Shown: positions 14,249 through 48,779 of the stretch, one piece after another | Layout of the letters: every line of letters begins with the position of its first letter | How positions within the stretch are numbered: the stretch's first letter is position 1 | Virus record (IMG/VR): IMGVR_UViG_3300020171_000017 | Span: 48,685-112,684 of that record | Origin: a virus | Lineage: Duplodnaviria; Heunggongvirae; Uroviricota; Caudoviricetes | Reading direction: 5' to 3' (one strand) | DNA: 64,000 nt | The notes under the pieces: model-generated | The model's database searches: none | The model's input: only the letters and a program-made list of their open reading frames with translations | Told to the model about the DNA's origin: nothing | Translations under genes and position numbers: made by a program

Positions 14249-16158
14249 AAACATACGAAAATTTATTTCCTCAGATAATTCGTGAGATCGAAAAACGTTC
14301 TGGAAAAGTTGGAGCTACTACTGGTTCGCGTTTCTCTGTACAGCCTGGCGGCGAAGGCGGGTCTCTAGATTCGCGCGCATTAGCCGAAATTATAACAGGT
14401 ATCGCTTCTGATTTTGCTATTCTAATCAAACCACGTATTATTTCAGGTTTCGATGTTACTGCTACAACACCGCCTTCGGCTACTGTTAATGTCTCTTTAG
14501 GTACAGGCACATCTAACGGCAAGAAATGGGAAATCGCCGCTGATAGTACTTTAAATATACCTTTAGATTCGACAACTTATGTTTTTTATATCACGGTGTA
14601 TAACAATGCTTTTGAAATCAGCAGGTCACATGATGATACTAAATGCGAGATATGCAGGATTATAGTGCCGCAGCCAGGCACAACATCTGCAATTGAAGAT
14701 GATAAACCTAGTGATAGTTATAACGGCTATATAGTCTCGGCGAAAGACGCGGTATACGACGAAGATCAGGAATTTGACGACGCTTCAGTAGAAAAATTGA
14801 GAGACGTAATTGGTGCGGTGTTAGCCGATAATTTAATAGGTAATATCAAACTATCAGAAAATTTAAAGATAACTAACACGCAAGGTACATTAGAATTAGA
14901 TAGTAAAGAAATTAGAATTTTAAGTGCAAATGAAACTACTCTTGCAAAGTTTAACCGCAACGGCACTTTCTTCTATGATGATAATGGCGTAGAAATAGCC
15001 AAGTTTTCTACTACAGGTGCTAGAATCGGGAATATAGAAGTTTTAACAAATGCTCTAAAATCTAGCGATTATGTCGCAGGTACTACAGGTTTTAAAATAT
15101 CCGATAGTGGTATAGTAGATTTCTTATCGGGCACTATCGGTGGTATTACAATTGTGAATAACTCATTGCGTTCTAGTAACTTTGTATCTGGTACATTATT
15201 AGGAGCGGGTTTTGAAATAGCTAGCGATGGTAGTGCGGAATTTCAAAATATTAAAGCTAGAGGAAGAATTGCTACCTCAGTTTTCGAGAAAGACACCATA
15301 TCCAGCGTTGGCGGTAATTTATTAGTTATGGACTCAGATTCGTTAAGCATTGATATGACCTCTAGAGAAGATTCTATTTTAAATATCGTTGGTGATACTA
15401 CTTTTCCTACTGGATCTATTTTACGAATAAAAGACGGTATTGATGATGAATGGCTAGAAGTAACTGCAGTCAACGGTACTGCTTATACCGTTACTAGAGA
15501 TAAAGCATCCCTCTATACACTAAATAATAATCCAGTATGGACAAAAGGCACATGTGTAGTCAATTATGGTACGTCTGGGAAGGGTGGGATATTTATGACA
15601 TCTTCAGAAAGTAATTCACCGTATATGCATTTTTTTACCCACTTAGGTTCTCCTTGGTCTACTACTACGGCAAAAACACGAATAGGAAATTTAGATGGTG
15701 TGGCAGGCTGTTCTGGGTATGGTATTTGGGCAGGTAGTGGCTATTTAGGTGAGTTGTCAGTTATAGATTTGATTACCATATCGGCAGAAGGTAGTATTAG
15801 AAGTAACGCCCTGGGTAGTTATCCATATGTAGAATTTTCTCAATCGGGATTACAGTTAAGGAATAGTGATGTGGGGGGAACTTATTCTACAGGATTATAT
15901 AGCACGGACAAGTATGGGAGTGGGGCTTTAGTTTGGATAATGAATGCTACATACGGTATTCCTTGGATGGAAATGAAAGAACCAAGTAGTGGGGGCTATA
16001 CAGTTCCTAGTATGCGATTTTTCAATAGAGACGTTGACCCAACAAGTGCAGCAGAAGTTGGTGATTTAGCAGTAGTGGGTGGTAAATTAAAAATATGTAC
16101 AGTTGCAGGTGATCCTGGTGCAGCAACCTGGACAGTGGTGGGTGCACAAACAGTATAA
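14245..16158 (+). CDS. putative tail fibre protein
   Basis: 637 aa, Gly/Ser/Thr-rich with repeated beta-rich segments; ATGA overlap. Confidence 0.5.
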   Translation: MKTYENLFPQIIREIEKRSGKVGATTGSRFSVQPGGEGGSLDSRALAEIITGIASDFAILIKPRIISGFDVTATTPPSATVNVSLGTGTSNGKKWEIAADSTLNIPLDSTTYVFYITVYNNAFEISRSHDDTKCEICRIIVPQPGTTSAIEDDKPSDSYNGYIVSAKDAVYDEDQEFDDASVEKLRDVIGAVLADNLIGNIKLSENLKITNTQGTLELDSKEIRILSANETTLAKFNRNGTFFYDDNGVEIAKFSTTGARIGNIEVLTNALKSSDYVAGTTGFKISDSGIVDFLSGTIGGITIVNNSLRSSNFVSGTLLGAGFEIASDGSAEFQNIKARGRIATSVFEKDTISSVGGNLLVMDSDSLSIDMTSREDSILNIVGDTTFPTGSILRIKDGIDDEWLEVTAVNGTAYTVTRDKASLYTLNNNPVWTKGTCVVNYGTSGKGGIFMTSSESNSPYMHFFTHLGSPWSTTTAKTRIGNLDGVAGCSGYGIWAGSGYLGELSVIDLITISAEGSIRSNALGSYPYVEFSQSGLQLRNSDVGGTYSTGLYSTDKYGSGALVWIMNATYGIPWMEMKEPSSGGYTVPSMRFFNRDVDPTSAAEVGDLAVVGGKLKICTVAGDPGAATWTVVGAQTV

Positions 16159-20585: not shown

Positions 20586-20640
20586 AAACAGCTATATTTT
20601 TATGCATAATATATTAAGCATAATTATATGGCTGTTTTTA
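20586..20640. terminator. bidirectional hairpin terminator between convergent plus and minus gene blocks
   Basis: imperfect inverted repeat AAAAACAGCTATAT...ATATGGCTGTTTTT with T tracts both sides. Confidence 0.35.
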
Positions 20641-21261
20641 TATTTCTATTTCTACTGGTTTATTCACTAACTGATATGCTTCGTTCATTAAGCTAGCGTT
20701 AATGAAAGTAGTATGTTCGTTTTTAAAAATGCCATAGGAAAAATGTATATGGCCAAAAAAATGGAATCGTGGTTTTATGAAGTTAATTCTTTCTAATAAT
20801 CTAGGACAACCAACATTGTTTTTAGTGAAAACTGCATAATCTAAAATCCCGAACGGCGGGCCATGCGTGATAATTATGTCGCTGAATACGGATATTTGAT
20901 CCCAATATTTTGATATCTTATCTCGATCGCACATGAAAAACCAATTCTGGAACTCCGGCGTTATCGGTGATCCCCAGAATTTCAAGCCTCGGATTTCACA
21001 GCCAGAGTTCTCAAGATAAATAGCATTGGTGAGTTGCTTTTGGATAGACTTCATACCGCATTGGAAAGCATATCGATCATGATTGCCGCAAATACAAACC
21101 TTATAGTCAAAAGGTTGTTTCTCTAACCACCGATTAAAACGCCACAAATCTGCCTGGTTCCATATTCCTATGTCTCCGCAAATGATTAATATGTCTGCAG
21201 GCCTTAAGTCTAAAAGATAGTAGTCGCCATGAAGATCGGAAATTATTGTGAGTTTAATCAT
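20638..21261 (-). CDS. calcineurin-like metallophosphoesterase
   Basis: motifs DLHGD, GDIG, GNHD, GHIH in canonical order. Confidence 0.7.
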   Translation of the reverse strand: MIKLTIISDLHGDYYLLDLRPADILIICGDIGIWNQADLWRFNRWLEKQPFDYKVCICGNHDRYAFQCGMKSIQKQLTNAIYLENSGCEIRGLKFWGSPITPEFQNWFFMCDRDKISKYWDQISVFSDIIITHGPPFGILDYAVFTKNNVGCPRLLERINFIKPRFHFFGHIHFSYGIFKNEHTTFINASLMNEAYQLVNKPVEIEI

Positions 21262-21274
21262 TGTAATTTTATAG

Positions 21275-21345
21275 TGGCTATAATTGGAATTAAACCAATA
21301 CTCGAAACTTATGAAACTTTTGTTCTGTCGTTAAACTATATAGCT
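21275..21345 (-). tRNA. tRNA-like gene, weak anticodon stem (loop could read CAU or UCA)
   Basis: acceptor AGCTATA/TATAGCC, perfect T-arm ATTGG-TTTAATT-CCAAT; anticodon stem poorly paired. Confidence 0.3.
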
Positions 21346-21357
21346 GTTGTTGTTATT

Positions 21358-21429
21358 AGCAGAAGTGGGATTCGAACTCACAATAACTTGTTTCTAAAAC
21401 AAGTTCCTTTTCCAATTAGGATATTCTGC
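21358..21429 (-). tRNA. tRNA with anticodon UAG (Leu-decoding) but short variable arm
   Basis: acceptor GCAGAAT, anticodon stem CTTGT/ACAAG, loop TTTAGAA, T-loop TTCGAAT. Confidence 0.5.
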
Positions 21430-21448
21430 TGTTAAATTATAACTTAAA

Positions 21449-21523
21449 CGTGCTCGGAAAGAATTGAACTTTCACATTCCTATTTTAGAAGAATAGTGGC
21501 TTATCCATTTTGCCTACGAGCAC
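21449..21523 (-). tRNA. tRNA-Arg (UCU)
   Basis: acceptor GTGCTCG/CGAGCAC perfect, anticodon stem CTATT/AATAG, loop CTTCTAA, T-arm GAAAG-TTCAATT-CTTTC. Confidence 0.65.
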
Positions 21524-21528
21524 AAATC

Positions 21529-21888
21529 TTAGCAATTAACAAAATCCTCGTCGTCGCTCTCATCTTCCACTAAATCGCGCAATTCGTTTAACGTCGCTCT
21601 TAAAGCTTCTTTATTGCCATAGGCTAACATTCTATCTTCAGCTATATCGTGATCGCACTCTTCTTTACATTCAGGGCATATCGTACCTGGCACTTCTTTG
21701 AATGCTACAAAACTTGCAACGAAACATACATTGTTTTTGTTCGCTTCAGTGTATCTTTCGATTGCGTCAATTATATCTTGTAGTTCTTTACTGATTACCT
21801 CATCGTTCTCGTCTGGCATATTGTCTATCATTTTTTGTTCTCCTAAATATGTTTTGGGTAACAGTTTACCCTGATACTTTTTGCTCAA
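21529..21888 (-). CDS. hypothetical acidic protein
   Basis: 119 aa, CPECKEECDHD motif. Confidence 0.4.
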   Translation of the reverse strand: MSKKYQGKLLPKTYLGEQKMIDNMPDENDEVISKELQDIIDAIERYTEANKNNVCFVASFVAFKEVPGTICPECKEECDHDIAEDRMLAYGNKEALRATLNELRDLVEDESDDEDFVNC

Positions 21889-21938
21889 GTTTATGCGTTT
21901 TGCATATAACCACGACCATAAGTTTTAAATTTTTATTT

Positions 21939-22130
21939 TTAATATACTAAAATTTTCAAAATCCATTCACCGTAAGGATATTCTGGATTAGTTATCCATT
22001 TTTCCTTATATTGTTCTATGAATTTAACTTCATAAGTATGCATCTTTCTAATACTCTGTTTAGCTTTTTCTAATGTCCTATAAACTGTTTTAAGATGCCA
22101 CCCCTCCTCAAAAACTACATATACATACAT
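21939..22130 (-). CDS. hypothetical protein (63 aa)
   Basis: ORF in minus-strand block. Confidence 0.3.
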   Translation of the reverse strand: MYVYVVFEEGWHLKTVYRTLEKAKQSIRKMHTYEVKFIEQYKEKWITNPEYPYGEWILKILVY

Positions 22131-22372
22131 TTAAAATCCTTTCTTTTTAATGCCCAATTAGAATATCAGACTCCAATTATTTTTCGTTGTAGGCGAAGTG
22201 CCATAACCAATTAGGCGAACAGGGCAAAATTTCACGTGCAGAGAGTTAAACTTTGCAACTTAATTAATTTATAGAGCCATTTTTGCAATGATCAATTGCT
22301 ATTCACAACTCAAAAATAAAAAAAGTCAGGCACTCAATTGGTATGCATCCCTTATGCCTACGCTAAATTAAA

Positions 22373-22772
22373 GTGGATCTGGTGGGAATCGAACCCACGT
22401 CCTAAAATATCCAAATATAAAACCCTACATACATAGCTTATTATTTTCACCTTTACATTAATGATTGAATAAGCACGATCATCAATGTGCAAATCTTTAT
22501 TTGATTACTTCTATCGCAAAGATTAATCAATAGAATTAGCATAATAAATGACCTTCTTTAGCTCTTATGCCGAACTGAAGAAGGTGCTTTACCTAAATTT
22601 AGGCAAAGACTGGGTCCCCAGCAAAGATAGGTGCTACAATATCTTCAGCCGAAGCTAATAACCGCTGATTTTCGTCTGCGTTTATTTTTGTGCAAGATTT
22701 TTTACACAGCCAACTTGCGTCTGTGATATGCGTTTTATATTCGACCTATTTCAGTCTAACCCGATCAGACCC
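22373..22772 (-). ncRNA. ssrA: tmRNA-like (ssrA-like) gene, tentative
   Basis: ~400 nt without ORF; 5' GGGTCTG pairs with 3' CAGATCC adjacent to T-arm GTGGG-TTCGATT-CCCAC; internal ...AAAAAUAAAC GCA GAC GAA AAU... resembles canonical resume region, open tag frame ADENQRLL...VFA-UAA. Confidence 0.45.
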
Positions 22773-22801
22773 AAATATATTCAAAGAACAGTGTTAAATA
22801 G

Positions 22802-22888
22802 CTGTGGCGGTTGGATTCGGACCAACAATGAGAATTTCTTCTAATAGCTTAACAGGCTATCCCCTGCAACCAATTCGGGTACACCACA
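22802..22888 (-). tRNA. type-II-like tRNA (87 nt, long variable arm), identity unresolved (anticodon loop CUGUUAA)
   Basis: acceptor TGTGGTG/CGCCACA, anticodon stem ATAGC/GCTAT, variable-arm hairpin AGAA-GAAA-TTCT, T-arm GTTGG-TCCGAAT-CCAAC. Confidence 0.4.
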
Positions 22889-22893
22889 ATATC

Positions 22894-23124
22894 TTATTTT
22901 TTTCTATCTTCCATTAATTCACCAATAAACAATATTATATCACTTAAACAATCTTTATTCCAAATAGTATCATAATTTGGAAAGAATGCGTAACATCTCC
23001 AATTCACGTACCATTTTATAATCCCTAACCGATCACTGTGCATCTTCGACACCACTTCATAAACATTTGTTTTTTCTTTCTTCTCTAAAAGATTAAATGT
23101 TAAGTATTTTGATTGCATATTCAT
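22894..23124 (-). CDS. hypothetical protein (76 aa)
   Basis: small ORF, minus-strand operon. Confidence 0.3.
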   Translation of the reverse strand: MNMQSKYLTFNLLEKKEKTNVYEVVSKMHSDRLGIIKWYVNWRCYAFFPNYDTIWNKDCLSDIILFIGELMEDRKK

Positions 23125-23345
23125 CTCCGTTTAATATCAGAATAATAATAAATATCAATAAGCATAGCAACTACTGTGTAATATAATTCTTCTTGTGTGT
23201 TTATATCTAATTTTTTAAAAATATGTTTGAGGTTCTCTCTAGTATATTTTGGGATAGCACACAAATTGTCTATGGCATCAATATCTTCATATTTAATTTT
23301 TAATAATTTATGCACATAATTCCAATCTTTGAATTTTTTCTTCAT
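23121..23345 (-). CDS. hypothetical protein (74 aa)
   Basis: start/stop overlap with downstream gene. Confidence 0.3.
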   Translation of the reverse strand: MKKKFKDWNYVHKLLKIKYEDIDAIDNLCAIPKYTRENLKHIFKKLDINTQEELYYTVVAMLIDIYYYSDIKRR

Positions 23346-23359
23346 ATATCTTTTATTCT

Positions 23360-23436
23360 TGGTGCCACGACTCAGTGTCGAGCTGAGATCTCTGCGCCTT
23401 CAACGCAGCACTTTTGACCAGTTAAGTTATCGTGGC
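23360..23436 (-). tRNA. tRNA-Phe (GAA), CCA encoded
   Basis: acceptor GCCACGA/TCGTGGC-A-CCA, D-stem ACTT/AAGT, anticodon stem CTGCG/CGCAG loop TTGAAGG, T-stem CTCAG/CTGAG. Confidence 0.7.
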
Positions 23437-23715
23437 GTACATCTTATCAATTACCAACTGCATCTTCTGCCTCACAGAAGCGTTATCAGTTACTAAAACT
23501 ATTTCTTCAGGCAGATATTGTTGGTTTTGCTCTAACCAACAAAGTATATCATAACCTGTATATTCTTTGCCGTTATAGAAATCAGCCAAATCATGATCTA
23601 AGAGAAGGAGATTATATGGTTGTGATTGCAACGCCAATACGCCCTCAATATAAGACCTTGCTGTATGGGTCGCTACTTCTAAATTTCTTTTGTCATCAAT
23701 TAATAGTATGTTCAT
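23422..23715 (-). CDS. stand-alone response-regulator receiver (CheY-like) domain protein
   Basis: MNILLIDDKRN...LLLLDHDL...GYDIL pattern typical of REC domains; 97 aa. Confidence 0.45.
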   Translation of the reverse strand: MNILLIDDKRNLEVATHTARSYIEGVLALQSQPYNLLLLDHDLADFYNGKEYTGYDILCWLEQNQQYLPEEIVLVTDNASVRQKMQLVIDKMYATIT

Positions 23716-23745
23716 TTTTTATACAACTCCTTGTATGGTTTTAAA

Positions 23746-23817
23746 AGCCCCAATCGGGATTTGAACCCGAACCTTCTCGGTGGAAACGAGATATGCTGCC
23801 AAAAACACTTTTGGGGC
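23746..23817 (-). tRNA. tRNA-Gly (UCC)
   Basis: acceptor GCCCCAA/TTGGGGC, anticodon stem TCTCG/CGAGA loop TTTCCAC, T-loop TTCAAAT. Confidence 0.7.
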
Positions 23818-23833
23818 GTTGTTATTCTTTTAA

Positions 23834-23905
23834 AGCCCCCTGACAGATGTGCGCTGTCCTGTCAAGTTTACAAAACTTGTCCTTCGCTGTCTAAGGTTAG
23901 GGGGC
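23834..23905 (-). tRNA. tRNA-Thr (UGU)
   Basis: acceptor GCCCCCT/AGGGGGC perfect, anticodon stem CAAGT/ACTTG loop TTTGTAA, T-stem GACAG/CTGTC. Confidence 0.65.
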
Positions 23906-23924
23906 AGTCTTAACTTAATATCAG

Positions 23925-23995
23925 AGCCAAAGACGAGAATTAAACTCGTGCCTGAACATTGGCAATGTTCGATACTATCACTATACGACTTTGGC
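23925..23995 (-). tRNA. tRNA-Gly (GCC)
   Basis: acceptor GCCAAAG/CTTTGGC, anticodon stem GAACA/TGTTC loop TTGCCAA, T-arm ACGAG-TTTAATT-CTCGT. Confidence 0.6.
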
Positions 23996-24140
23996 ATATA
24001 TTCAGTCGAGCAGTACGATTCACACGTAACTTTTTGCACTACGGCAAACTTGCTGTATCTATTACCCTAATGCCTTGAGCCAATTCCCGGGATGCTCGGC
24101 ACCTACTCTTATAGATTTACAACACTGCTCGGATTTTCAG

Positions 24141-24214
24141 TGGAGCTGGAGCGAGTTGAACGCTCACTTATATTGATTGCAAAGCAATTGCCTTCCCAAT
24201 TAGGCAACAGCCCC
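24141..24214 (-). tRNA. tRNA-Ala (UGC), probable
   Basis: acceptor GGGGCTG/CAGCTCC (G3-U70 wobble), D-arm GCCT-AATTGGGA-AGGC, loop TTTGCAA, T-arm GAGCG-TTCAACT-CGCTC. Confidence 0.5.
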
Positions 24215-24218
24215 ATAT

Positions 24219-24692
24219 TCATTCATTTTCAATTATATGATACACAACTTCTTTACCTAATTTTCTAGCTTCTTTCGCTGTCCAACATGCACCAGATTTC
24301 ATATGATCATTAGTATGACAATGGTAACATTTATTAAATCGCATGCCATTATATCCTTTAGGATATTTATCAACTAAAATTACATGTAATATGTCTGAAT
24401 CTTTAGCAATATCTAAATTACGTTGTTTAAAACCATATTCAGCGTCCCAAATATTTTGTTTTGGGATTTTAAGATCTAATAAAAATCCAAGCCGCTTCGA
24501 TTCTTCTTCCCCATAAATGTCTATACCACCTACAGGTGAATGACCTGAAACAAAATAAATAGGTTCTATTTTTTTATTTTTTAAACAATTTAAAGAAAAA
24601 TCAATTAAAATACTTGTGAGTAATTCTTTAGCTTCTATTTTACTTTTTTCAGTGAATTTATCCTCACCATGACCTATTATGCCTATTTTCAT
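24219..24692 (-). CDS. Rossmann-fold protein (SLOG/LOG/DprA-like?), function unknown
   Basis: MKIGIIGHGED...YFVSGHSPVGGIDIYGEE pattern. Confidence 0.35.
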   Translation of the reverse strand: MKIGIIGHGEDKFTEKSKIEAKELLTSILIDFSLNCLKNKKIEPIYFVSGHSPVGGIDIYGEEESKRLGFLLDLKIPKQNIWDAEYGFKQRNLDIAKDSDILHVILVDKYPKGYNGMRFNKCYHCHTNDHMKSGACWTAKEARKLGKEVVYHIIENE

Positions 24693-24706
24693 AGTTCCTT
24701 TCTTAG

Positions 24707-24789
24707 TGCGTGCTGATGGATTTAAACCACCGAATCCCGAAGGAACCCGCTCTACAGGCGAGTGCGATTAGTCTCTCTGCCAAGCACGC
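24707..24789 (-). tRNA. tRNA-Tyr (GUA), type II
   Basis: acceptor GCGTGCT/AGCACGC, anticodon loop CTGTAGA, long variable arm TCC-TTCG-GGA, T-stem GGTGG/CCATC. Confidence 0.65.
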
Positions 24790-24798
24790 ATAATTTTT

Positions 24799-24872
24799 GG
24801 GTGGATAACGAGAAATCGAACTCGCTCCTAAAGAGCCACAATCTTCCGTGCATCCTCTACACTATATCCACC
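24799..24872 (-). tRNA. tRNA-His (GUG) with encoded G-1
   Basis: G-1 opposite discriminator C73, acceptor GTGGATA/TATCCAC, anticodon stem GAAGA/TCTTT loop TTGTGGC; T-arm slightly atypical. Confidence 0.6.
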
Positions 24873-24877
24873 ATATT

Positions 24878-25396
24878 TTATTCATTCTCAATCCCCAAGT
24901 ATTTGCACCACAATTCGTGAATAAATCCTAACTTCATTTTTAAGATCATCTTAAACCCATGTGGTTTAGTTGGTATTTTTAACAACTTCATACCTGCTTC
25001 TTTTGGTGTTCTATTATCTTTAATACCATTACAAATATTACATGCCGTCGTACAATTTTCCCAAGTTGTTTTCCCGCCCTGAGATTCTGGCAAAACATGG
25101 TCTATAGTCAATTTTCTAGGCTCGAATTTCACGCCGCAATACGAACAAGTAAAATTATCGCGAATATGTATATTATGTTTTGAGTAAGAAACAAAAGCTA
25201 TTTTTTCAAACGCTACTCGCACATATCGTTTCAATCTTATGACTGCAGGAATTTTCATAGTAAGTGAAACACTATGTACCTCCTGCTCATAAGAGGACTC
25301 AAGAATAGCTTTTTCTAAATAAATTAAATTAATAGATGATTGCCAACTACAAAACCCAAGGAACGTAAAATCTTGATTCAAAATTAAGACACGCAC
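24878..25396 (-). CDS. HNH endonuclease
   Basis: CSYCGVKFEPRKLTIDHVLPESQGGKTTWENCTTACNICNGIKDNR = HNH/McrA-type motif. Confidence 0.65.
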   Translation of the reverse strand: MRVLILNQDFTFLGFCSWQSSINLIYLEKAILESSYEQEVHSVSLTMKIPAVIRLKRYVRVAFEKIAFVSYSKHNIHIRDNFTCSYCGVKFEPRKLTIDHVLPESQGGKTTWENCTTACNICNGIKDNRTPKEAGMKLLKIPTKPHGFKMILKMKLGFIHELWCKYLGIENE

Positions 25397-25399
25397 TTC

Positions 25400-26155
25400 T
25401 TACCCTTTCCTTTCTTTCCAAAACTCTTCTAATAACTCTATTTGTAATTTATTTATCGCTTCTTGATCAGCACCATATTGTAAATCTGATTGCACATATG
25501 CCAAATCAACTAATTTCTCTATCTCTTCAGCTTTATTCAATACCCAAGTCAAATCATATTTACCTAATTTCACATCCCGTACTAAATTATGCTGCGGTAA
25601 TGGAAATGTTAAAGCCTTTTCAGTTAATAATTGGAGACATTCTAACAAAAGCCTAATCAAATGGGATCCGAACTTAACATCATATCCAAACTTTAATGCT
25701 AATTCTTTTCTACCTGTCATATTATCACGTTTAATTTCTAACTTTTCTCTTTGCGAATACGAGTATCCTTTAAAAGTATGATACGCTTTTTTAGACAAAA
25801 ACAAATGCCTATTCTCAATCAATTTATTAGCAAACTTATCTCTATATAATACGCAATTTTCTGGTACATAAAGGAACTCTATAACATTGGGATTATTTGC
25901 CATTGCTAATGGTATAAATTTCGTTAACGCATAGACCATATAATCAGTATCGCCTTTTTGATTACGAACCGATTTAGAAATCTTCTCAGACAACTCAACT
26001 TGTTCTACATTTTTAATACCTAGTACATAGTCTTTATCAGGTATGAATATGCCGCCTAAATCTTCGTCTGAAGTTTCTGTTCTCGTCCCATATAAATTCG
26101 AGCCGATTCTGATTTTATATATCGTATTTCGTAACGCCATATCTCGTTCTTGCAT
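25400..26155 (-). CDS. Pol-beta-superfamily nucleotidyltransferase
   Basis: IGSNLYGTRTETSDEDLGGIF = GS-x10-SD-x-D NTase signature followed by ~150-aa helical domain. Confidence 0.55.
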   Translation of the reverse strand: MQERDMALRNTIYKIRIGSNLYGTRTETSDEDLGGIFIPDKDYVLGIKNVEQVELSEKISKSVRNQKGDTDYMVYALTKFIPLAMANNPNVIEFLYVPENCVLYRDKFANKLIENRHLFLSKKAYHTFKGYSYSQREKLEIKRDNMTGRKELALKFGYDVKFGSHLIRLLLECLQLLTEKALTFPLPQHNLVRDVKLGKYDLTWVLNKAEEIEKLVDLAYVQSDLQYGADQEAINKLQIELLEEFWKERKG

Positions 26156-26172
26156 GTTTATAATCCTTTTAG

Positions 26173-26258
26173 TTAGGCGAGGCAGAGTCGAACTGCCGTT
26201 TCCACCCCTACAAGTTGCAACTTTACGGGTGACGACTTACCGTTAGTCGATCAGCCTA
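26173..26258 (-). tRNA. tRNA-like gene, type-II size, unusual expanded anticodon region
   Basis: T-arm GGCAG-TTCGACT-CTGCC, acceptor AGGC(T)GA/TCGCCT with one bulge, D-arm CGAC-TAACGGTAA-GTCG; stem CACCC/GGGTG encloses 19 nt containing palindrome AAGTTGCAACTT. Confidence 0.4.
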
Positions 26259-26266
26259 AATTTTTA

Positions 26267-26341
26267 TCGGCACAGGAAGACTCGAACTTCCACTATTCAT
26301 CGCCCCAAACGATGCGGTCTACCAATTTGACCAATGTGCCG
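26267..26341 (-). tRNA. tRNA-Pro (UGG)
   Basis: C1-G72 acceptor CGGCACA/TGTGCCG, D-arm GGTC-AAATTGGTA-GACC, anticodon stem CATCG/CGATG loop TTTGGGG, T-arm GGAAG-TTCGAGT-CTTCC. Confidence 0.7.
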
Positions 26342-26686
26342 TTATATCTTTTTATTTCTTCCTAATTTTTTATCAATTTCTAACCTATCAAAACCGTAAT
26401 ATTTATCACCCTTAATAAATGAAGTAGAATTCGATAGATAGACAAGAGAAGATAATAAACTACGTAATTCACAAAATAAACCTTCACTTATATCAAGTTT
26501 TTTACCAATATCAGATTTATCTAAAAATATCTTTAAAGTATTTACAATCACTCTAAATCTTTCTTCAGTTTTAATAGGCAGTACAAATGCCTCATCTATA
26601 GCGTAACCTAGTGCATGAATCTCTTCTGCCTCATCTTTATCGAGTTTCTCACTATCAATATGAATTAATCTAACCTCATCTTTCAT
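26342..26686 (-). CDS. hypothetical protein (114 aa)
   Basis: ORF ends one base from tRNA-Pro; minus-strand operon. Confidence 0.4.
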   Translation of the reverse strand: MKDEVRLIHIDSEKLDKDEAEEIHALGYAIDEAFVLPIKTEERFRVIVNTLKIFLDKSDIGKKLDISEGLFCELRSLLSSLVYLSNSTSFIKGDKYYGFDRLEIDKKLGRNKKI

Positions 26687-26710
26687 TTCTTCATCTCCAT
26701 TTAAAGTAGT

Positions 26711-28288
26711 TCATAATTTATCTTTATTCTGTTCTCTAAATTCTTTCAATTCCTTATCCCGCCTTTCTTCGATTTCTTTAGGAAAGCCACGATTTAAACA
26801 TCTTGGGCAAGCAGCTTCTTTTGTTTTGTTTTTAGGGTCTTGCGTAGTTTGAATATAACCACTACATATTATAACTTCATCCGCAATATAATTTTTGCAC
26901 AATTTTCTAGAAACATAATAACTACACTTTTCCCAATCTTCTTTTTTCATTTTTTCATCTCCATTTTTTTCTTCTACCCACTTCAGATACACTTCTTCAT
27001 TCTCACCTAACTTCAGTTCACCATTAATCACTGCATTTAGCACCATCTCTTTAATCTCACCTACCTGCCTTACCTGACCGAGATTAAAATATCGCATAAT
27101 GGCGTTACCATTTAAGGGCGATTTTGGTGATTCTTTAAAGTTTCGTTGTTCTTCAATACGGCGTTTGAGATCCATGAGAGAATCTAAATGCTTTTTGATT
27201 GAAACGGGATTGTGAGAAGTTATGTCACTTTCACTCAATTGCAATAATTTTCCACAATATTCTCCAGTTTCAAAAATAAAACGCCTAACAGCACTATCTG
27301 AAAAAGATTCGGTGTACGTATTAACACGCATATGATTTTTCACCAGGTATGTGATATCTTTTATCATTTTAGTTGGTAGACCTAATCGCTGTAAGATTGA
27401 GTAAGTCATCCGAGATCCGATTTCATCGTGATCATAAAAATGTATTTTACCATTCTCATTAGAGAAGGTACATTGCTTTCCAATATCGTGAAATAATGCA
27501 CTAAAACGAAGTACTAAATCTTTTGGAGTATTCTTTACAACATCAATTGTATGGAGTAAAGCATCTTTATGGTGAAACTCACTTTCTTGTTTTATAGATT
27601 TTAATGCTACTAATTCAGGTATAAAATAATTTATAAGCCGATACTCAAATAAATCATTGAGAGCAAGATCGACATTATCGGTCATTAATATTTTGTTTAC
27701 TTCGTCTAAAATCCTTTCTTTTGGCAAAATTAACAAACGTTTTGCGCATGATTTTAATGCCATTTTCACTTCTTCACTATATTCAAAACCTAACTTCGCT
27801 CGAAAGCGCACGGCGCGGATTAATCTTAACGGATCGTCAGCGAAAGATTTTCCTGCCTGTATAGGTGTAGAAATTATTTTATTCTTAAGGTGCTCTACGC
27901 CCCCAAATAAATCCTTGATTTCCCTCTTACTATCTAAGCACAAACAATTAATTGTGAAATCCCTTCTATGCAGATCATCCTCTATTGTTTGTCCCCACTC
28001 GACTACGGGGTTCCTATTACTTCGTTGATAAGATATATCCCGCCTATATGTCGTGCACTCCACCTTATATCCATCCACTATCGCACCTACAGTCCCGAAC
28101 GCTATGCCTACGGTGTAAGTTTTATACCCCGCCTTCTGCAATATCTCTAAAGTAACTTCAGGCACGCAGGAAACCGCGAAATCTAAATCTTGAGTTTCGA
28201 GACCTAAAAGTTGATCCCTGCACGCACCGCCGACTAAATATATAGAGTGACCATTCTTACTAAATAACTCAAATATTTTATTTTTCAT
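26711..28288 (-). CDS. cca: tRNA nucleotidyltransferase (CCA-adding enzyme) with HD phosphohydrolase domain
   Basis: GGACRDQLLGLETQDLDFAV head motif; HD motif HHKDALLHT...FSALFHDIGK; 525 aa. Confidence 0.8.
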   Translation of the reverse strand: MKNKIFELFSKNGHSIYLVGGACRDQLLGLETQDLDFAVSCVPEVTLEILQKAGYKTYTVGIAFGTVGAIVDGYKVECTTYRRDISYQRSNRNPVVEWGQTIEDDLHRRDFTINCLCLDSKREIKDLFGGVEHLKNKIISTPIQAGKSFADDPLRLIRAVRFRAKLGFEYSEEVKMALKSCAKRLLILPKERILDEVNKILMTDNVDLALNDLFEYRLINYFIPELVALKSIKQESEFHHKDALLHTIDVVKNTPKDLVLRFSALFHDIGKQCTFSNENGKIHFYDHDEIGSRMTYSILQRLGLPTKMIKDITYLVKNHMRVNTYTESFSDSAVRRFIFETGEYCGKLLQLSESDITSHNPVSIKKHLDSLMDLKRRIEEQRNFKESPKSPLNGNAIMRYFNLGQVRQVGEIKEMVLNAVINGELKLGENEEVYLKWVEEKNGDEKMKKEDWEKCSYYVSRKLCKNYIADEVIICSGYIQTTQDPKNKTKEAACPRCLNRGFPKEIEERRDKELKEFREQNKDKL

Positions 28289-28290
28289 TT

Positions 28291-28716
28291 TTAGAATAAA
28301 AGATTTTGTTCTAACGCTAAATTATATATGTCTTGCATAGGAATTCGACAAAAATTAGGTATTTCTCTAAATTCGTACATAGAAGAATAGATTAACTGAA
28401 TAGCTTCAAATAACCCCACATTTCTCGCAATTAAAGCTAAAAGAGCTATATGTGGACTTCTAGTCACACAACATTGACAATGTATAAATATATCATCAGT
28501 CCCTTTTAACTTTTCATATAATTCATATAAAGGAATATTCATTTTATATAAACTATCACCATCTTTGTAATCTATTTCAATATCGTTATTTCTAAGCATA
28601 CTACATCTTTGATCTGGGTAATCATTTCGCCATATGTGGATTGTTCGCATAATTGAATTACAACATGATTCTTTGTCCCCTAACCAAATATTTTTATTTA
28701 GATAAATTTTTTTCAT
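28291..28716 (-). CDS. cysteine phosphatase (dual-specificity/PTP-like P-loop)
   Basis: IHCQCCVTRSP matches HC-x5-R-S/T catalytic loop; 141 aa. Confidence 0.5.
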   Translation of the reverse strand: MKKIYLNKNIWLGDKESCCNSIMRTIHIWRNDYPDQRCSMLRNNDIEIDYKDGDSLYKMNIPLYELYEKLKGTDDIFIHCQCCVTRSPHIALLALIARNVGLFEAIQLIYSSMYEFREIPNFCRIPMQDIYNLALEQNLLF

Positions 28717-28988
28717 TTTAAAAATAGCTCATGCATTTCTATCTTCCAATCTTTAATTTCATCGAAACTATCAAAACATATTGGATACATTCTGCTATCA
28801 CCTTCTTTTTTTATGCACCAGAAACCTTTGTTCCAACCGCTTTTAATTATCATTTTAGGCGAAAGCTGAAAGTCTGTCTTTCTTACTGATTCAGACACAA
28901 TTAATGTAGTGCCTACTAATTGAAAGTCTGCTGGTAAATCTTTAATTTTAATAGTTTTCATTTCGGGACCTTTCTTTTTGGCTACCAC
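28713..28988 (-). CDS. hypothetical protein (91 aa)
   Basis: overlapping stop/start with phosphatase gene. Confidence 0.35.
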   Translation of the reverse strand: MVAKKKGPEMKTIKIKDLPADFQLVGTTLIVSESVRKTDFQLSPKMIIKSGWNKGFWCIKKEGDSRMYPICFDSFDEIKDWKIEMHELFLK

Positions 28989-29053
28989 ATAAGGATCCGA
29001 TCCTTAATCTTCAGCTTCAGAGGCTGACGAATTACCAGTTATTCGATGTGGTA
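28982..29053 (-). tRNA. tRNA-Gln (CUG)
   Basis: U1-A72 + discriminator G73 (Gln identity), anticodon stem TCAGC/GCTGA loop CTCTGAA, T-stem TAAGG/CCTTA. Confidence 0.7.
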
Positions 29054-29056
29054 ATA

Positions 29057-29251
29057 TTATACAATATAATGCACAAAAGCTTCTATTTTGCCACAATCAC
29101 ATCGATGCATAATTTCATATTGCACATCAAAAAGATATTCATCTAATTTTGCAATAATCTTTTCTAAATGAGAGTGGTTTTTAGCTTTAATCCAACATCC
29201 TGAACGTTCTGTCATTTTTAATCTCCAATCATAGCTACGGGAGATGAGCAC
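29057..29251 (-). CDS. hypothetical protein (64 aa, Cys/His-containing)
   Basis: small ORF between tRNAs. Confidence 0.3.
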   Translation of the reverse strand: MLISRSYDWRLKMTERSGCWIKAKNHSHLEKIIAKLDEYLFDVQYEIMHRCDCGKIEAFVHYIV

Positions 29252-29306
29252 GATTCATCATTAACAGCTTCAAAGGCTGCTTGCCTACCTATTAGCAGAT
29301 CCCGTA
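29235..29306 (-). tRNA. tRNA-Gln (UUG)
   Basis: U1-A72, G73, anticodon stem GCAGC/GCTGT loop CTTTGAA, T-stem GATGA/TCATC (non-canonical T-loop ATCGTGC). Confidence 0.6.
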
Positions 29307-29312
29307 ATTCTG

Positions 29313-29385
29313 TGGGTGCAGAAAGCCTTAAACTTTCAATCTATCGGGTAAGAACCAATTGCTTTATCAATTAAGCTATGCACCC
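29313..29385 (-). tRNA. tRNA-Lys (CUU)
   Basis: acceptor GGGTGCA/TGCACCC, D-arm GCTT-AATTGATA-AAGC, anticodon loop TTCTTAC, T-arm GAAAG-TTTAAGG-CTTTC. Confidence 0.6.
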
Positions 29386-29398
29386 GTTATTTCCTTAA

Positions 29399-29469
29399 TG
29401 AGCGTACCAGAATTCGAATCTGGATAGACACATTAAAAGTGTGTTAATCTGCCCTTGATTTATACGCCC
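29399..29469 (-). tRNA. tRNA-Lys (UUU)
   Basis: acceptor GGGCGTA/TACGCTC, anticodon stem ACACA/TGTGT loop CTTTTAA, T-arm CCAGA-TTCGAAT-TCTGG. Confidence 0.7.
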
Positions 29470-29481
29470 GTTAACTATTAG

Positions 29482-29555
29482 AGGCGATAACTGGATTCGG
29501 ACCAGTGATTGTACTGTTTTGCAGACAGTTCGATTAGCCACTCTCGCACACCGCC
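29482..29555 (-). tRNA. tRNA-Cys (GCA)
   Basis: acceptor GGCGGTG/TATCGCC (two G-U), discriminator U73, anticodon stem ACTGT/ACAGT loop CTGCAAA, T-arm ACTGG-TCCGAAT-CCAGT. Confidence 0.6.
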
Positions 29556-29562
29556 ATAACCT

Positions 29563-29901
29563 TCAATACAACGCCCAACCGCTGCCTTTTTCTTTTCTTG
29601 GTTTACTGCCTTTACCGCCAGATTTTGTGTTATATGTATCGTTATTTTCTATAAAATCTCGGTTAACCAATTCTTGCTCTTTATTCTCCATATCTATTTT
29701 GTTGTTATAGATAAACAAGATCTCTTTCTTAAAGTTATGTATGCCATAATATTTATGGGCATTTTTCATTGTGATGCCAGAACCTTTGTAATCGTCATTT
29801 ACATCTTCGGTCGCATGCTTACCGATGTATATCTTGCTGTTAATCAGATTTGTGATCTTATAGACTATGTAGTATGTCATAATATTTTTAAGCACAGGCA
29901 C
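29563..29901 (-). CDS. GIY-YIG homing endonuclease (stand-alone catalytic domain)
   Basis: YIVYKITNLINSKIYIGKH ... R ... E ... N motifs of GIY-YIG; 112 aa; embedded in tRNA array. Confidence 0.7.
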   Translation of the reverse strand: MPVLKNIMTYYIVYKITNLINSKIYIGKHATEDVNDDYKGSGITMKNAHKYYGIHNFKKEILFIYNNKIDMENKEQELVNRDFIENNDTYNTKSGGKGSKPRKEKGSGWALY

Positions 29902-29946
29902 CAGGACTTTAACCTAGGCCAACTGTTCCAATATTCTTCAACATTA

Positions 29947-30021
29947 GCGCCTCCTGTCGAATTTAAATCGACGATATCTTGATCGACAATCAAGTGCATT
30001 GAATCGCTATGCTAAGGAGGC
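29947..30021 (-). tRNA. tRNA-Asp (GUC)
   Basis: acceptor GCCTCCT/AGGAGGC, G73, D-arm GCAT/ATGC, anticodon stem CTTGA/TCAAG loop TTGTCGA, T-stem GTCGA/TCGAC. Confidence 0.7.
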
Positions 30022-30031
30022 AATTTTCAAG

Positions 30032-30102
30032 TGACGCTACGGGGAATTGGACCCCGACATTCTGGTCGAAAGCCAGATATACTGCCTTTATATGATAGCG
30101 CC
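30032..30102 (-). tRNA. tRNA-Glu (UUC)
   Basis: acceptor GGCGCTA/TAGCGTC, anticodon stem TCTGG/CCAGA loop CTTTCGA, T-stem CGGGG/CCCCG. Confidence 0.65.
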
Positions 30103-30349
30103 ATAAAAACAAAAAAACCGATTCAGTTTTAGTAGTTCGTAGCTTTTAATCTATGCTGCTGATTGCTACTTACTACTTTGTTGAGTCGGTATAATTCGCA
30201 ATCAGCACAGATAGTTTAGGCATAATGCCTGTCGAACATAAAAAGGCTCTATGCCAAAACTTGCGGTTTTGGTTCGGCGTTTCTTGTATCTGTTCTGGCG
30301 TTTTATGTTGTAACATTTTCTATGCTTTCGTTACGATGTGAAATTTTAG

Positions 30350-30421
30350 TAGCGGGTTACGAAATCGAATCGTATTAAAGTTGGTTATGAGCCAACCAAG
30401 ATTCCAAACCTTCCACCCGCA
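30350..30421 (-). tRNA. tRNA-Met (CAU) with unpaired 1:72 (U.U)
   Basis: acceptor (T)GCGGGT/ACCCGC(T), D-stem AAGG/TCTT, anticodon stem GTTGG/CCAAC loop CTCATAA, T-arm TACGA-TTCGATT-TCGTA. Confidence 0.55.
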
Positions 30422-30498
30422 AATATAATAAACCTATAGCTCAAATATATAAAATGCTTGCCTATTAATAATATATTATAGCACAATTATACAAAAAG

Positions 30499-30927
30499 TC
30501 AAGGCAAAACTTCAACTTTTTTCTCTTTAAATTTTCTATCTCTTTTATCAGCTAGAAACAATCTTAACTTATACATCTCACCATTAGTGAATAGTCCGAT
30601 ATATCGTTTTTCTTTCTTTTTAGGGTCTTTACTTCTGCTTATAAACGATATTCTATCTTTATCGGTAAACGCTTTTAGAACTTGTGTCGCATGAATGTAA
30701 GTCTTATTAAATTTCTGTTTTATCTTCTCGCGTTCTAATACTTTCGGCAACCGTTTTTGTATATAATACCGATGGTTCGATAGTATTTGAGTAATCTTGA
30801 TTCTCAACGCTTTAATCTGTAAAGATTGATTATCTAGCCGTACATACAATTGAGCCAAGGTTTTTGGATCTTCTACATAATACGGCTCGCTATAAACCGA
30901 TTCAACTAATTTTGGTTTCTGGTTCAC
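30499..30927 (-). CDS. hypothetical basic protein (142 aa)
   Basis: Lys/Arg-rich; overlaps downstream gene start. Confidence 0.4.
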   Translation of the reverse strand: MNQKPKLVESVYSEPYYVEDPKTLAQLYVRLDNQSLQIKALRIKITQILSNHRYYIQKRLPKVLEREKIKQKFNKTYIHATQVLKAFTDKDRISFISRSKDPKKKEKRYIGLFTNGEMYKLRLFLADKRDRKFKEKKVEVLP

Positions 30928-37830: not shown

Positions 37831-38373
37831 TTATCCTACTAAACTTCTCTCCCAACGTATTTTATTCGCCTTGGATTGCGGTAAATTACGATCTCTATTG
37901 TTCCAATCTACAAAAGCAGTTTCATTACCGATATGCCAACCACTTGCTTTATAAATCGTACCAGTATGTACTTCTGTATCTTGATATGAAATTAAACGTG
38001 TTATTTCTGGCATCTTCTTCTTAATTAGTTTAATCATAACACTTATCATTCTACTAGCAGTATTCTTAGGGCATTTCTCAGATATAGCCAATCTTCTTAA
38101 CTCTAATATCTTTTTGCCATTTTTAAATCTGTTTTGCGCTACAGGACTTGACCAAATACCTACAGCTAAACATATATTGTCGAAATACGCACCATAACAA
38201 ACATAATGCGTATTTCTAGTAACATTAGAACAATCTATTATGGGTAATCTTGAGTGCCATAAAGCATTCATACGGCAAGCGTTTTGTGGTCTTATCTCTC
38301 GCACTATCATTTCAAGCGGAGAGGTCGGAATCGAACCGCCATTAATATTTTGGAATAAATCTTGTTCTACCAT
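37831..38373 (-). CDS. hypothetical protein (180 aa)
   Basis: ORF; no family recognised. Confidence 0.4.
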   Translation of the reverse strand: MVEQDLFQNINGGSIPTSPLEMIVREIRPQNACRMNALWHSRLPIIDCSNVTRNTHYVCYGAYFDNICLAVGIWSSPVAQNRFKNGKKILELRRLAISEKCPKNTASRMISVMIKLIKKKMPEITRLISYQDTEVHTGTIYKASGWHIGNETAFVDWNNRDRNLPQSKANKIRWERSLVG

Positions 38374-38390
38374 TAAACTATCTCCGCAAT

Positions 38391-48600: not shown

Positions 48601-48779
48601 CGGTTAACCACCTTAATTTGCCTTAAATTTAAGCCGCAATTGGCACAAAACTGCCAGTTTAAGCCTGTTGCCTGCTTGCATATAGTACATAGCCGTAACG
48701 CTTGATCTTGCACACTGCCACACTGATGGCAGAAATTCGCGGTATCGGCTAGATTGTAGGTGCAATTGGCGCAGGTCAT
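48597..48779 (-). CDS. double zinc-ribbon protein (60 aa)
   Basis: CANC...CHQCG...CTICK...CANCG. Confidence 0.4.
   Translation of the reverse strand: MTCANCTYNLADTANFCHQCGSVQDQALRLCTICKQATGLNWQFCANCGLNLRQIKVVNR

Follow-up and report, generated by a model that had tools for sequence, protein, structure and literature searches.

Large phages are already known to carry islands of transfer RNA (tRNA) and transfer-messenger RNA (tmRNA) genes together with CCA-adding and RlaP/cREC repair genes. The tRNA region of phage T4 (eight tRNAs, RNAs C and D, and segB) is a one-strand cluster whose precursors are cut by host RNases. It yields small stable RNAs of obscure role (PMC3014915) and houses a GIY-YIG Seg endonuclease amid its tRNAs, and Seg-type endonucleases have been tied to phage tRNA loci (PMC13096335). 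In jumbo phages, RlaP, cREC and CCA enzymes have been described as an RNA-repair kit in which the role of cREC is predicted (PMC7824862). RlaP extends damaged RNA 3' ends by 1-2 nucleotides and is required for heavily damaged tRNA to be aminoacylated again once repaired (PMC12776372). Phage tmRNAs occur in ~2.3% of sequenced phages (PMC9004378) and have been reported in huge phages (PMC7162821). Codon compensation is the classical account of phage tRNAs, which are also proposed to counter host tRNases (PMC10264068). Here we describe a 10-kb island built around a minus-strand tRNA array at 21275-30421 of a 64,000-nucleotide (nt) window, which is the whole stretch that we analysed (positions 48,685 to 112,684 of the Caudoviricetes record IMGVR_UViG_3300020171_000017 in IMG/VR). 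We consider it likely that this island is a self-contained module with which a large, uncultivated tailed phage supplies, matures and repairs tRNAs.

The genes of the island lie on one strand behind a sigma-70-like promoter, and their order is conserved in related phages. The array comprises 19 solid tRNAs, a tmRNA and four atypical elements, which we call B, C, D and E. An earlier note, made by reading the letters alone, had described small protein genes interleaved with the tRNAs; small open reading frames (ORFs) are indeed present between them, but the note overlooked a CCA-adding enzyme and RNA-repair genes. With such genes between the tRNAs, the functional reading is no longer that of a plain codon supplement but that of an island for supply and repair. 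Moreover, CCA is encoded in only 2 of the 19 tRNAs, Phe and Gln(CUG), so that nearly all of the RNAs depend on the CCA enzyme encoded in the middle of the array; 13 of the 21 RNAs that we checked end in N73-C-U.

We searched the whole window with ARAGORN at default settings and with Rfam at its gathering score, which is 29 bits for the tRNA model RF00005. ARAGORN called 18 tRNAs and one tmRNA. Every one of them is a minus-strand gene at 21357-30421, and the rest of the 64 kb gave no tRNA or tmRNA. Rfam placed 15 array tRNAs at 37-63 bits; with laxer filters it also scored Phe (53 bits), the 88-nt GUU tRNA (48.2 bits) and, at 35.4 bits, Gln(UUG). Rfam further contributes a CAU tRNA at 21275-21345 (48.1 bits), which ARAGORN calls only when the threshold is lowered. 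Overall, 18 of the 19 solid tRNAs score 35.4-62.6 bits, at or above the gathering score, with E-values of 1e-5 to 1e-11 (1e-56 for the tmRNA). The remaining one, Met at 30349-30421, is called by ARAGORN alone and is unscored by Rfam; its orthologue in the related contig L001 scores 57.6 bits. The 19 tRNAs span 16 amino acids, with Leu and Asn assigned by anticodon, and all 19 have a 7-nt anticodon loop, U33 and a purine at position 37 in the ARAGORN drawings.

These results bear out the estimate in the earlier note of about 20 minus-strand tRNA genes plus a tmRNA. Its interval start, 21275, coincides exactly with the Rfam CAU tRNA. Among the 17 tRNAs that it named as canonical, 16 pass a detector, whereas Thr(UGU) is scored by neither tool: its cloverleaf is perfect, yet U8, GG and T-Psi-C are missing, and we treat it as element D. 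The bacterial identity elements that had been pointed out for His, Pro, Gln and Cys are all present, as the list below specifies, and we add G3.U70 in the Ala tRNA and in the tmRNA. Leu(UAG), Asn(GUU) and the second CAU tRNA had gone unnamed and were presumably among the several atypical tRNA-like genes mentioned there. In the order of the minus strand, the tRNAs are as follows.

30349-30421, minus strand: tRNA(CAU), initiator-like; U1xU72 mismatch, G2-C71, C3-G70, G4-C69, A73; ARAGORN
30031-30102, minus strand: tRNA-Glu(UUC); ARAGORN, Rfam 56 bits
29947-30021, minus strand: tRNA-Asp(GUC); ARAGORN, Rfam 60.5 bits
29481-29555, minus strand: tRNA-Cys(GCA), U73; ARAGORN, Rfam 48.6 bits
29399-29469, minus strand: tRNA-Lys(UUU); ARAGORN, Rfam 59.1 bits
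29312-29385, minus strand: tRNA-Lys(CUU); ARAGORN, Rfam 58.3 bits
29234-29306, minus strand: tRNA-Gln(UUG), U1-A72, G73, unusual T loop; ARAGORN, Rfam 35.4 bits
28979-29053, minus strand: tRNA-Gln(CUG), U1-A72, G73, CCA encoded; ARAGORN, Rfam 54.7 bits
26267-26341, minus strand: tRNA-Pro(UGG), C1-G72, A73; ARAGORN, Rfam 37.4 bits
24799-24872, minus strand: tRNA-His(GUG), encoded G-1 opposite C73; ARAGORN, Rfam 49.5 bits
24706-24789, minus strand: tRNA-Tyr(GUA), class II, 84 nt, A73; ARAGORN, Rfam 39.1 bits
24140-24214, minus strand: tRNA-Ala(UGC), G3.U70; ARAGORN, Rfam 52.1 bits
23924-23995, minus strand: tRNA-Gly(GCC); ARAGORN, Rfam 54.1 bits
23746-23817, minus strand: tRNA-Gly(UCC); ARAGORN, Rfam 55.5 bits
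23360-23436, minus strand: tRNA-Phe(GAA), CCA encoded; ARAGORN, Rfam 53 bits
22801-22888, minus strand: class II tRNA, anticodon GUU (Asn), 88 nt, U1-A72, G73; ARAGORN, Rfam 48.2 bits
21448-21524, minus strand: tRNA-Arg(UCU); ARAGORN, Rfam 53.9 bits
21357-21430, minus strand: tRNA with anticodon UAG (Leu), class I, 74 nt, A73; ARAGORN, Rfam 62.6 bits, the array maximum
21275-21345, minus strand: tRNA(CAU) with elongator-Met-like acceptor, A1xC72 here and G1-C72 in relatives; Rfam 48.1 bits

The two CAU tRNAs are thus one initiator-like and one elongator-like. In the former, positions 1 and 72 are unpaired, a mismatch retained in the related contigs L006 and L007 and replaced by C1xA72 in L001, and, of the three consecutive G-C pairs that a bacterial initiator tRNA-fMet has at the bottom of the anticodon stem, it has only two. 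We also considered the latter as a lysidine-modified tRNA-Ile2, which is unlikely: its acceptor (GGCUA.../...UAGCC in relatives) fits that of E. coli elongator tRNA-Met and not that of tRNA-Ile2. Outside 21.3-30.4 kb, the sole Rfam tRNA match lies ~8 kb beyond the array at 38316-38387 on the minus strand and is marginal, with 30 bits where the gathering score is 29. With its threshold lowered, ARAGORN draws a 6-nt anticodon loop for it. The match shares sequence with the start of a Mom-like ORF and probably represents either a relic or a false positive.

The promoter, the protein genes and a conserved hairpin of the island are listed below, with protein lengths in amino acids (aa).

30475-30502, minus strand: sigma-70-like promoter, TTGACT-16 nt-TATAAT with a TG extension, ~55 nt upstream of the first tRNA
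30173-30316, minus strand: 47-aa ORF between the Met and Glu tRNAs, frame kept in L006 and L007 including a 9-nt indel
30111-30189, minus strand: long hairpin CCGACUCA...UGAAUCGG followed by a U run, read from the sequence and kept in L001, L006 and L007
29563-29880, minus strand: small GIY-YIG-type endonuclease gene (Pfam SegE_GIY-YIG, E = 1e-4, below the curated cut-off)
28291-28716, minus strand: 141-aa protein with faint dual-specificity phosphatase likeness (Pfam DSPc, E = 0.0086, below the cut-off)
26711-28288, minus strand: CCA-adding tRNA nucleotidyltransferase with HD(IG) domain (Pfam PolyA_pol 4.9e-29, PolyA_pol_RNAbd 2e-14, HD 5e-5)
25400-26155, minus strand: RlaP-family nucleotidyltransferase (Pfam RlaP 1.8e-22; PHROG 388, 1.4e-54)
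24878-25396, minus strand: HNH homing-type endonuclease (Pfam HNH_5 and HNH, ~1e-14)
23422-23715, minus strand: cyclic-phosphate-processing receiver (cREC) domain protein (Pfam cREC_REC 1.4e-15)
20638-21261, minus strand: calcineurin-like metallophosphoesterase, the closing gene of the island (Pfam Metallophos 7e-7; PHROG 1649, 2.3e-20)

The promoter is the best site of our scan and agrees with the consensus at 11 of 12 positions, being a consensus match only. The CCA enzyme has the head, RNA-binding and HD domains of a class II CCA-adding enzyme, each above its Pfam cut-off; it scores 343 bits against the NCBIfam tRNA_CCA_actino cut-off of 438.8, so that sequence does not by itself tell CCA-adding from A-adding or poly(A) specificity. 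The RlaP domain (PF10127) scores 80.7 bits against a cut-off of 23; the relatives L010 and L015 have an RNA ligase neighbour, and none was found among the scanned ORFs of the window. The final 15 nt of the cREC gene overlap the Phe tRNA, and the metallophosphoesterase keeps its position in L007 and L014. The GIY-YIG product carries the motifs YIVY and IYIGK, read from the sequence, and a weak DSPc-like gene adjoins the CCA enzyme in L010 as well. Sequence searches of PDB with the 141-aa, 157-aa and RlaP proteins returned no significant match.

The CCA enzyme measures 525 aa in the window and 438-475 aa in close phage relatives. Its counterpart in L006 is a 446-aa gene with a separate, overlapping 79-aa ORF (446 + 79 = 525), and the ~80-aa C-terminal extension in the window therefore appears, from this comparison, to be a fused neighbouring ORF, whether by gene fusion, a lost stop codon or an assembly error. 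The added part bears a CxxC motif. The U-run hairpin at 30111-30189 sits directly before the Glu tRNA within the array and is an apparent terminator-like or processing element; a simple terminator scan did not call it.

Megablast of the 10-kb island against INPHARED gave no DNA-level match. An identical CCA-enzyme protein occurs on ENA and Logan metagenome contigs, and through homologues of the enzyme, 54-89% identical, we reached more viral contigs; a metagenome scan for relatives of the enzyme found none. The 175-kb IMG/VR contig L001 carries 29 tRNAs and a tmRNA, with the same RNA-gene order around its CCA-enzyme gene. L007 preserves nearly the whole window layout from clamp to phosphoesterase, with the genes for the CCA enzyme, RlaP, HNH, cREC and Metallophos in place, and the 7.7-kb contig L006 agrees with the window across the part that it covers. 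RNA-repair partners appear elsewhere in the group: L010 has an RNA ligase and a kinase-like AAA_18 protein by the same tRNA/CCA-enzyme block, and L015 has an RNA ligase directly beside RlaP and the CCA enzyme.

One interval of the array differs between these phages. In L006 and L007, Ser and Trp tRNAs lie between Asp and Cys, immediately upstream of the GIY-YIG gene, which is all that the window has there (window 29556-29946 against L006:3333-4049 and L007:7547-9175). The breakpoint abuts the endonuclease gene, as if the array had been remodelled there, and on this comparison the window array is a reduced version of those of its relatives. A 219-aa ORF of L007 is also gone from the window at the same interval. 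In L001, a 263-nt bacterial class A RNase P RNA stands between the Asp and Ser tRNAs (L001:7803-8065; 112.2 bits in Rfam against a gathering score of 100), with its core elements GAGGAAAGUCC and ACAAAACCUGGCUUA intact and its specificity domain mostly deleted; the same RNA occurs at L002:2048-2310 and L003:2600-2862. We found no report of a phage-encoded RNase P RNA in a literature search that was not aimed exactly at this point. The window itself holds no RNase P RNA (RF00010/RF00011) at the gathering score, nor does its 19-40 kb part at E<=10.

The tmRNA is a single-piece gene whose alignment covers positions 1-374 of the Rfam model RF00023 (gathering score 47). It has the acceptor GGGUCUG...CAGAUCC-A, the element GGGUUCGAUUCCC, a canonical T arm in the Rfam alignment and a GCA resume codon followed by a 26-codon frame. 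The gene and the tag peptides are as follows.

22371-22772, minus strand: one-piece tmRNA (Rfam 142.5 bits, ARAGORN), G3.U70, A73, no CCA, resume codon GCA
Tag in the window: ADENQRLLASAEDIVAPIFAGDPVFA
Tag in L007: ADENQRLLASANSIVAPIFANAPVFA
Tag in L001: ADENTRLLAEANAIVAHVFADAPVVATI
Tag in L008: ASENDRLIAEANAIVAHVFVDAPVFAHI

Since the tag frame is held in all four phages through synonymous substitutions, the tag is under selection at the peptide level. It may resemble cyanobacterial tags (AN.IV..F...APV.A). A blastn search with the tmRNA returned only a 32-nt T-arm match, to a Streptomyces phage. In L007, the tmRNA (15374-15772) keeps the tag frame and has a non-canonical T loop, UAUCGUA; it is uncalled by ARAGORN, and its altered loop echoes the changed elbow of element D.

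We propose that host RNA polymerase would transcribe the island early, from the sigma-70-like promoter, into long precursors from which host RNase P and RNase Z or E would excise the tRNAs, each tRNA or tRNA-like element acting as punctuation that frees the embedded mRNA downstream. The phage enzyme would then add CCA to the tmRNA and to the 17 of 19 tRNAs without it. The mature tRNAs may sustain translation of the AT-rich genome when the host pool is unsuited, depleted or cut by tRNA-targeting nucleases, while the CCA enzyme, through its HD domain, may mend cleaved or trimmed tRNA ends together with RlaP, cREC and the phosphoesterases. With host SmpB, which we assume, the tmRNA would free ribosomes stalled on broken messages and add its 26-aa tag. 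The endonucleases are best seen as putative mobile passengers that also reshuffle the array.

Several observations weigh against this proposal. Promoter-like sites are no commoner in the region than in shuffled sequence, and the phosphatase-like and GIY-YIG assignments fall below curated cut-offs. Neither an RNA ligase nor a polynucleotide kinase was present among the ~40 window ORFs scanned, which do not cover every ORF, so the repair pathway looks incomplete within these 64 kb; SmpB was likewise absent from that set, and the genome extends further. There is no tRNA for the common Ile codons AUA/AUU, for UUA (Leu), for any Ser codon or for Trp, and the tRNA set of the window is thus incomplete by itself.

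An alternative is the classical account, namely that the array is a plain codon supplement, supplying tRNAs for codons that this phage of 34% G+C uses beyond its host, with the enzymes as unrelated passengers. The phage is strongly AT-biased, and its tRNAs for AAA, GAA, CAA, AGA, GGA, GCA, CCA and ACA read its own major codons. However, many others fit minor codons (GAC 18%, CAC 17%, UAC 20%, UUC 22%, AAC 23% and CUA 8%), an argument that is weak given G34 wobble, and the heavily used UUA, AUA/AUU and all Ser codons have no tRNA in the set. Moreover, even between phages with CCA enzymes of only 60-67% identity, the CCA, RlaP, cREC and phosphoesterase genes stay at the same places inside the array, which would be unexpected of passengers. 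We regard codon supplement as a possible but doubtful explanation of the island. Since the repair genes hold their array places across divergent phages and the tRNA set does not track the commonest codons of the phage, supply plus repair is favoured over pure codon compensation.

The four atypical elements are as follows.

26172-26258, minus strand: element B, tRNA-like; Rfam tRNA 29.9 bits, just above the threshold
24007-24130, minus strand: element C, a ~124-nt structured RNA with tRNA-like acceptor and T arm, and covariation
23834-23905, minus strand: element D, a Thr(UGU)-like cloverleaf read from the sequence and found as the minimum-energy fold; no detector score
22150-22226, minus strand: element E, weak tRNA-like; Rfam 26.8 bits, below the threshold, and called by ARAGORN only at a lowered threshold

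None of B, D and E combines at least 29 bits with a canonical tertiary core of U8, G18G19 and T54-Psi55-C56 and a 7-nt anticodon loop. Element B has normal acceptor, D and T arms and, in place of a 7-nt loop, a 29-nt rod-like anticodon arm with a UGCA loop; its minimum-energy fold is a cloverleaf with this long arm, and it ends 17 nt before the start codon of RlaP. Exact-motif scans of viral and metagenome contigs found no further copy of B. In its intron mode, ARAGORN reads B as a tRNA-Thr with a 12-nt intron. We rejected this reading, since bacteria are not known to have a system for introns of this kind; the lone arm substitution in a relative would turn UGU into UAU and lies in a bulge of the rod. 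Element D has 21 perfect pairs, with G1-C72 and C2-G71 of the type recognised by threonyl-tRNA synthetase and the anticodon loop UUUGUAA, together with A8 instead of U8, a D loop AGACAGCG without GG and the T loop CGCACAU. L001 has Thr genes at its position. Element E is kin to the Arg(ACG)/Val(UAC) tRNAs of relatives; its anticodon loop, CCUACAA, has C33, its T arm is degenerate, and judged by these features it is probably decaying.

An acceptor-like stem of 8 base pairs (bp) closes element C, with a T-arm-like hairpin next to it, and there are also an invariant AGUAGGUGCCGA...UCAAGGCAUUAGGGUA hairpin and a further small one. We found five members: the window copy, L007:13418-13543, L008:5807-5933, L013:2413-2540 and L016:2745-2865. 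Four of them lie in tRNA arrays and the L016 copy in a replication module, where it stands between small zinc-ribbon-like ORFs amid ParB, RNase H and SNF2 genes. Across the five, 95.4% of cells are paired and both sides change in 14 of 26 pairs; none of 500 shuffles equalled this, and slid controls reached at most 38% paired. Element C matches no Rfam family, also at E<=10, which sets aside RNase P RNA, signal recognition particle RNA, Y RNA and a hepatitis delta virus (HDV)-like ribozyme; for the last, the pairing of the 5' end with the 3' end is in addition incompatible with the HDV fold. A blastn search against INPHARED found nothing. A motif scan of 596 Gb of genomes gave seven matches, about the estimated chance number and mostly in coding sequence, which we rejected; the match in L017 is an exception among the seven and possibly a homologue. 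Element C thus looks like a new family of structured RNAs whose ends resemble those of a tRNA.

Alternatively, B, D and E, and C perhaps as well, could be functionless, as decaying tRNA pseudogenes or insertion scars. Element E fits this, being below threshold, with C33 and a degenerate T arm, and looking like the 5' half of a relative's Arg(ACG) tRNA; for element D, the fetched relatives have no orthologue. The array is also clearly in flux, since Ser and Trp tRNAs retained in L006 and L007 are gone from the window. On the other side, element B is 98-99% identical in L006 and L007, equal to the Ala tRNA, amid neighbouring genes at 81-88%, and the 14 covarying pairs of element C hold across its five members. 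In element D, all 21 helix pairs are perfect while every conserved loop nucleotide is changed, the opposite of random decay. For the elements as a group, loss of function is therefore unlikely.

The variable arm is another feature in which the array departs from the usual tRNA classes. The GUU tRNA at 22801-22888 is class II, with a 3-bp D stem, a 12-nt D loop and a variable-arm hairpin AGAA-GAAA-UUCU, and its minimum-energy fold has five arms in both the window and L007. Of the 25 pairs compared between these two orthologues, none is broken; 9 have compensatory changes on both sides and 2 a single change, and the variable-arm stem covaries from A-U to G-C. The same slot, just before the tmRNA, holds an ordinary 75-76-nt Asn tRNA in L001, and L008 has an ordinary 76-nt Asn tRNA; an exact-motif scan of viral contigs for further Asn tRNAs with a variable arm found none. 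On the other hand, Leu(UAG) is class I in the window, L007 and L008 (75-76 nt in the latter two, with compensatory changes) and 82 nt with a longer variable arm in L001 and L014; the Leu tRNAs of L008 measure 74-77 nt. Tyr(GUA) is class II in the window and L001 and class I (72-75 nt) in L007, L008 and L013. Variable-arm hairpins have been gained in single lineages by His (88 nt, L013) and by Ile(UAU) (91 nt) and Lys(UUU) (80 nt) in L001. Together, these comparisons indicate that tRNAs of this phage clade gain and lose the variable arm unusually readily.

A more speculative explanation, and in our view a rather improbable one, would treat the odd RNAs as adaptors or decoys shaped by host tRNA-cutting defences. 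Known tRNA nucleases include Septu (tRNA-Tyr variable loop), OLD (anticodon arm) and PrrC- or VapC-type enzymes. Gain of the arm in Asn, His, Ile and Lys tRNAs and its loss in Leu and Tyr would yield substitutes that escape nucleases recognising the variable or anticodon arm. Element D would rewire the elbow, element B would swap the anticodon loop for a closed rod, and element C would ride along, such non-decoding mimics soaking up nucleases or guiding repair enzymes. A defence system that cuts tRNA-Tyr in its variable loop has been described (PMC13096335).

Weakest of all, and very unlikely, is the idea that the class II GUU tRNA is charged by seryl-tRNA synthetase, so that AAC/AAU would be read partly as Ser or the tRNA would act as a regulator. 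In its favour, a long variable arm and G73 have been used to argue Ser identity for allo-tRNAs (PMC5389517). In addition, ARAGORN finds no Ser tRNA in the window, and the class II build, with its 3-bp D stem and variable-arm hairpin, is conserved with covariation. However, anticodon GUU and G73, which are the main identity elements for asparaginyl-tRNA synthetase (AsnRS) in E. coli, are invariant in the window and L007, the gene occupies the exact slot of the ordinary Asn tRNA of L001 upstream of the tmRNA, its acceptor begins U1-A72 or A1-U72 and not with the G1-C72, G2-C71 of bacterial tRNA-Ser, and its variable-arm stem is only 4 bp. The hairpins in the His, Ile(UAU) and Lys tRNAs of relatives suggest arm insertion and not a change of identity, and misreading would be costly since Asn makes up 5.9% of phage codons. 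With acceptor and T stems of 7/5 bp in both the window and L007, and not 8/4 or 9/3, the GUU tRNA is no allo-tRNA.

The surroundings are those of a large tailed phage. Tape-measure and baseplate-like proteins are encoded upstream on the plus strand, a related array sits on the 175-kb viral contig, and primase-MCM helicase, DNA methylase and sliding clamp genes follow downstream; coding strand and GC skew flip at ~20.6 kb. The primase-helicase is ~30% identical to those of Bacillus phages and gave no host. Genes for counter-defence and modification adjoin the island at ~33.2-38.4 kb, among them Tad2-like (anti-Thoeris), Mom-like and Band_7/SPFH genes; two genes for DNA adenine methylases, D12 and MT-A70, lie farther on, as does one for a spore-photoproduct-lyase-like radical SAM protein. 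The sample accession of the related contig L012 points to a groundwater aquifer study.

In our reading as a supply, maturation and repair module, the window adds a further case of big phages with their own adaptor supply, in a lineage without a sequenced INPHARED relative. The interleaving of tRNA and repair genes supports a part for phage tRNAs in conflict with tRNA-targeting immunity, beyond codon tuning, and the class II Asn tRNA and the class I tRNAs for Leu and Tyr are informative on how far synthetases require the variable arm. We found no described family for element C above all, nor for element B, the class I Leu tRNA and the class II Asn tRNA. Of specific interest as by-products are the element C family, the RlaP-adjacent mimic B and the reduced RNase P RNA in the array of a sister phage.

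Compared with T4, the window likewise has a one-strand cluster, a small GIY-YIG gene and extra RNAs, elements B and C being like T4 RNAs C and D by description. Unlike T4, it encodes a tmRNA and a CCA-adding enzyme and over twice the number of tRNAs, and its island is without detectable similarity to any INPHARED phage. With phage tmRNAs (PMC9004378), it shares a complete ssrA gene near tRNA genes; its own is one-piece and not permuted, and the 26-28-aa tags of the group end in VFA, VVATI or VFAHI and not in ...LAA. The pairing of a long variable arm with a class I family anticodon is common to the GUU tRNA, to allo-tRNAs (PMC5389517) and to the nematode nev-tRNAs that the same source cites (Hamashima 2016). 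Unlike allo-tRNAs, the GUU tRNA has a 7/5 branch, an anticodon and discriminator that fit AsnRS, and the normal Asn slot. The jumbo and huge phages (PMC7162821, PMC7824862) have many tRNAs, a tmRNA, a CCA enzyme, RlaP and cREC in common with the window, under the same predicted logic of restoring RNA ends damaged by host nucleases. The largest related contig, at 175 kb, lies below their 200-kb cut-off, and RNA ligase and kinase partners were not found among the scanned window ORFs. What sets the window apart from the jumbo phages is that its repair genes are physically interleaved with the tRNAs in one 10-kb unit.

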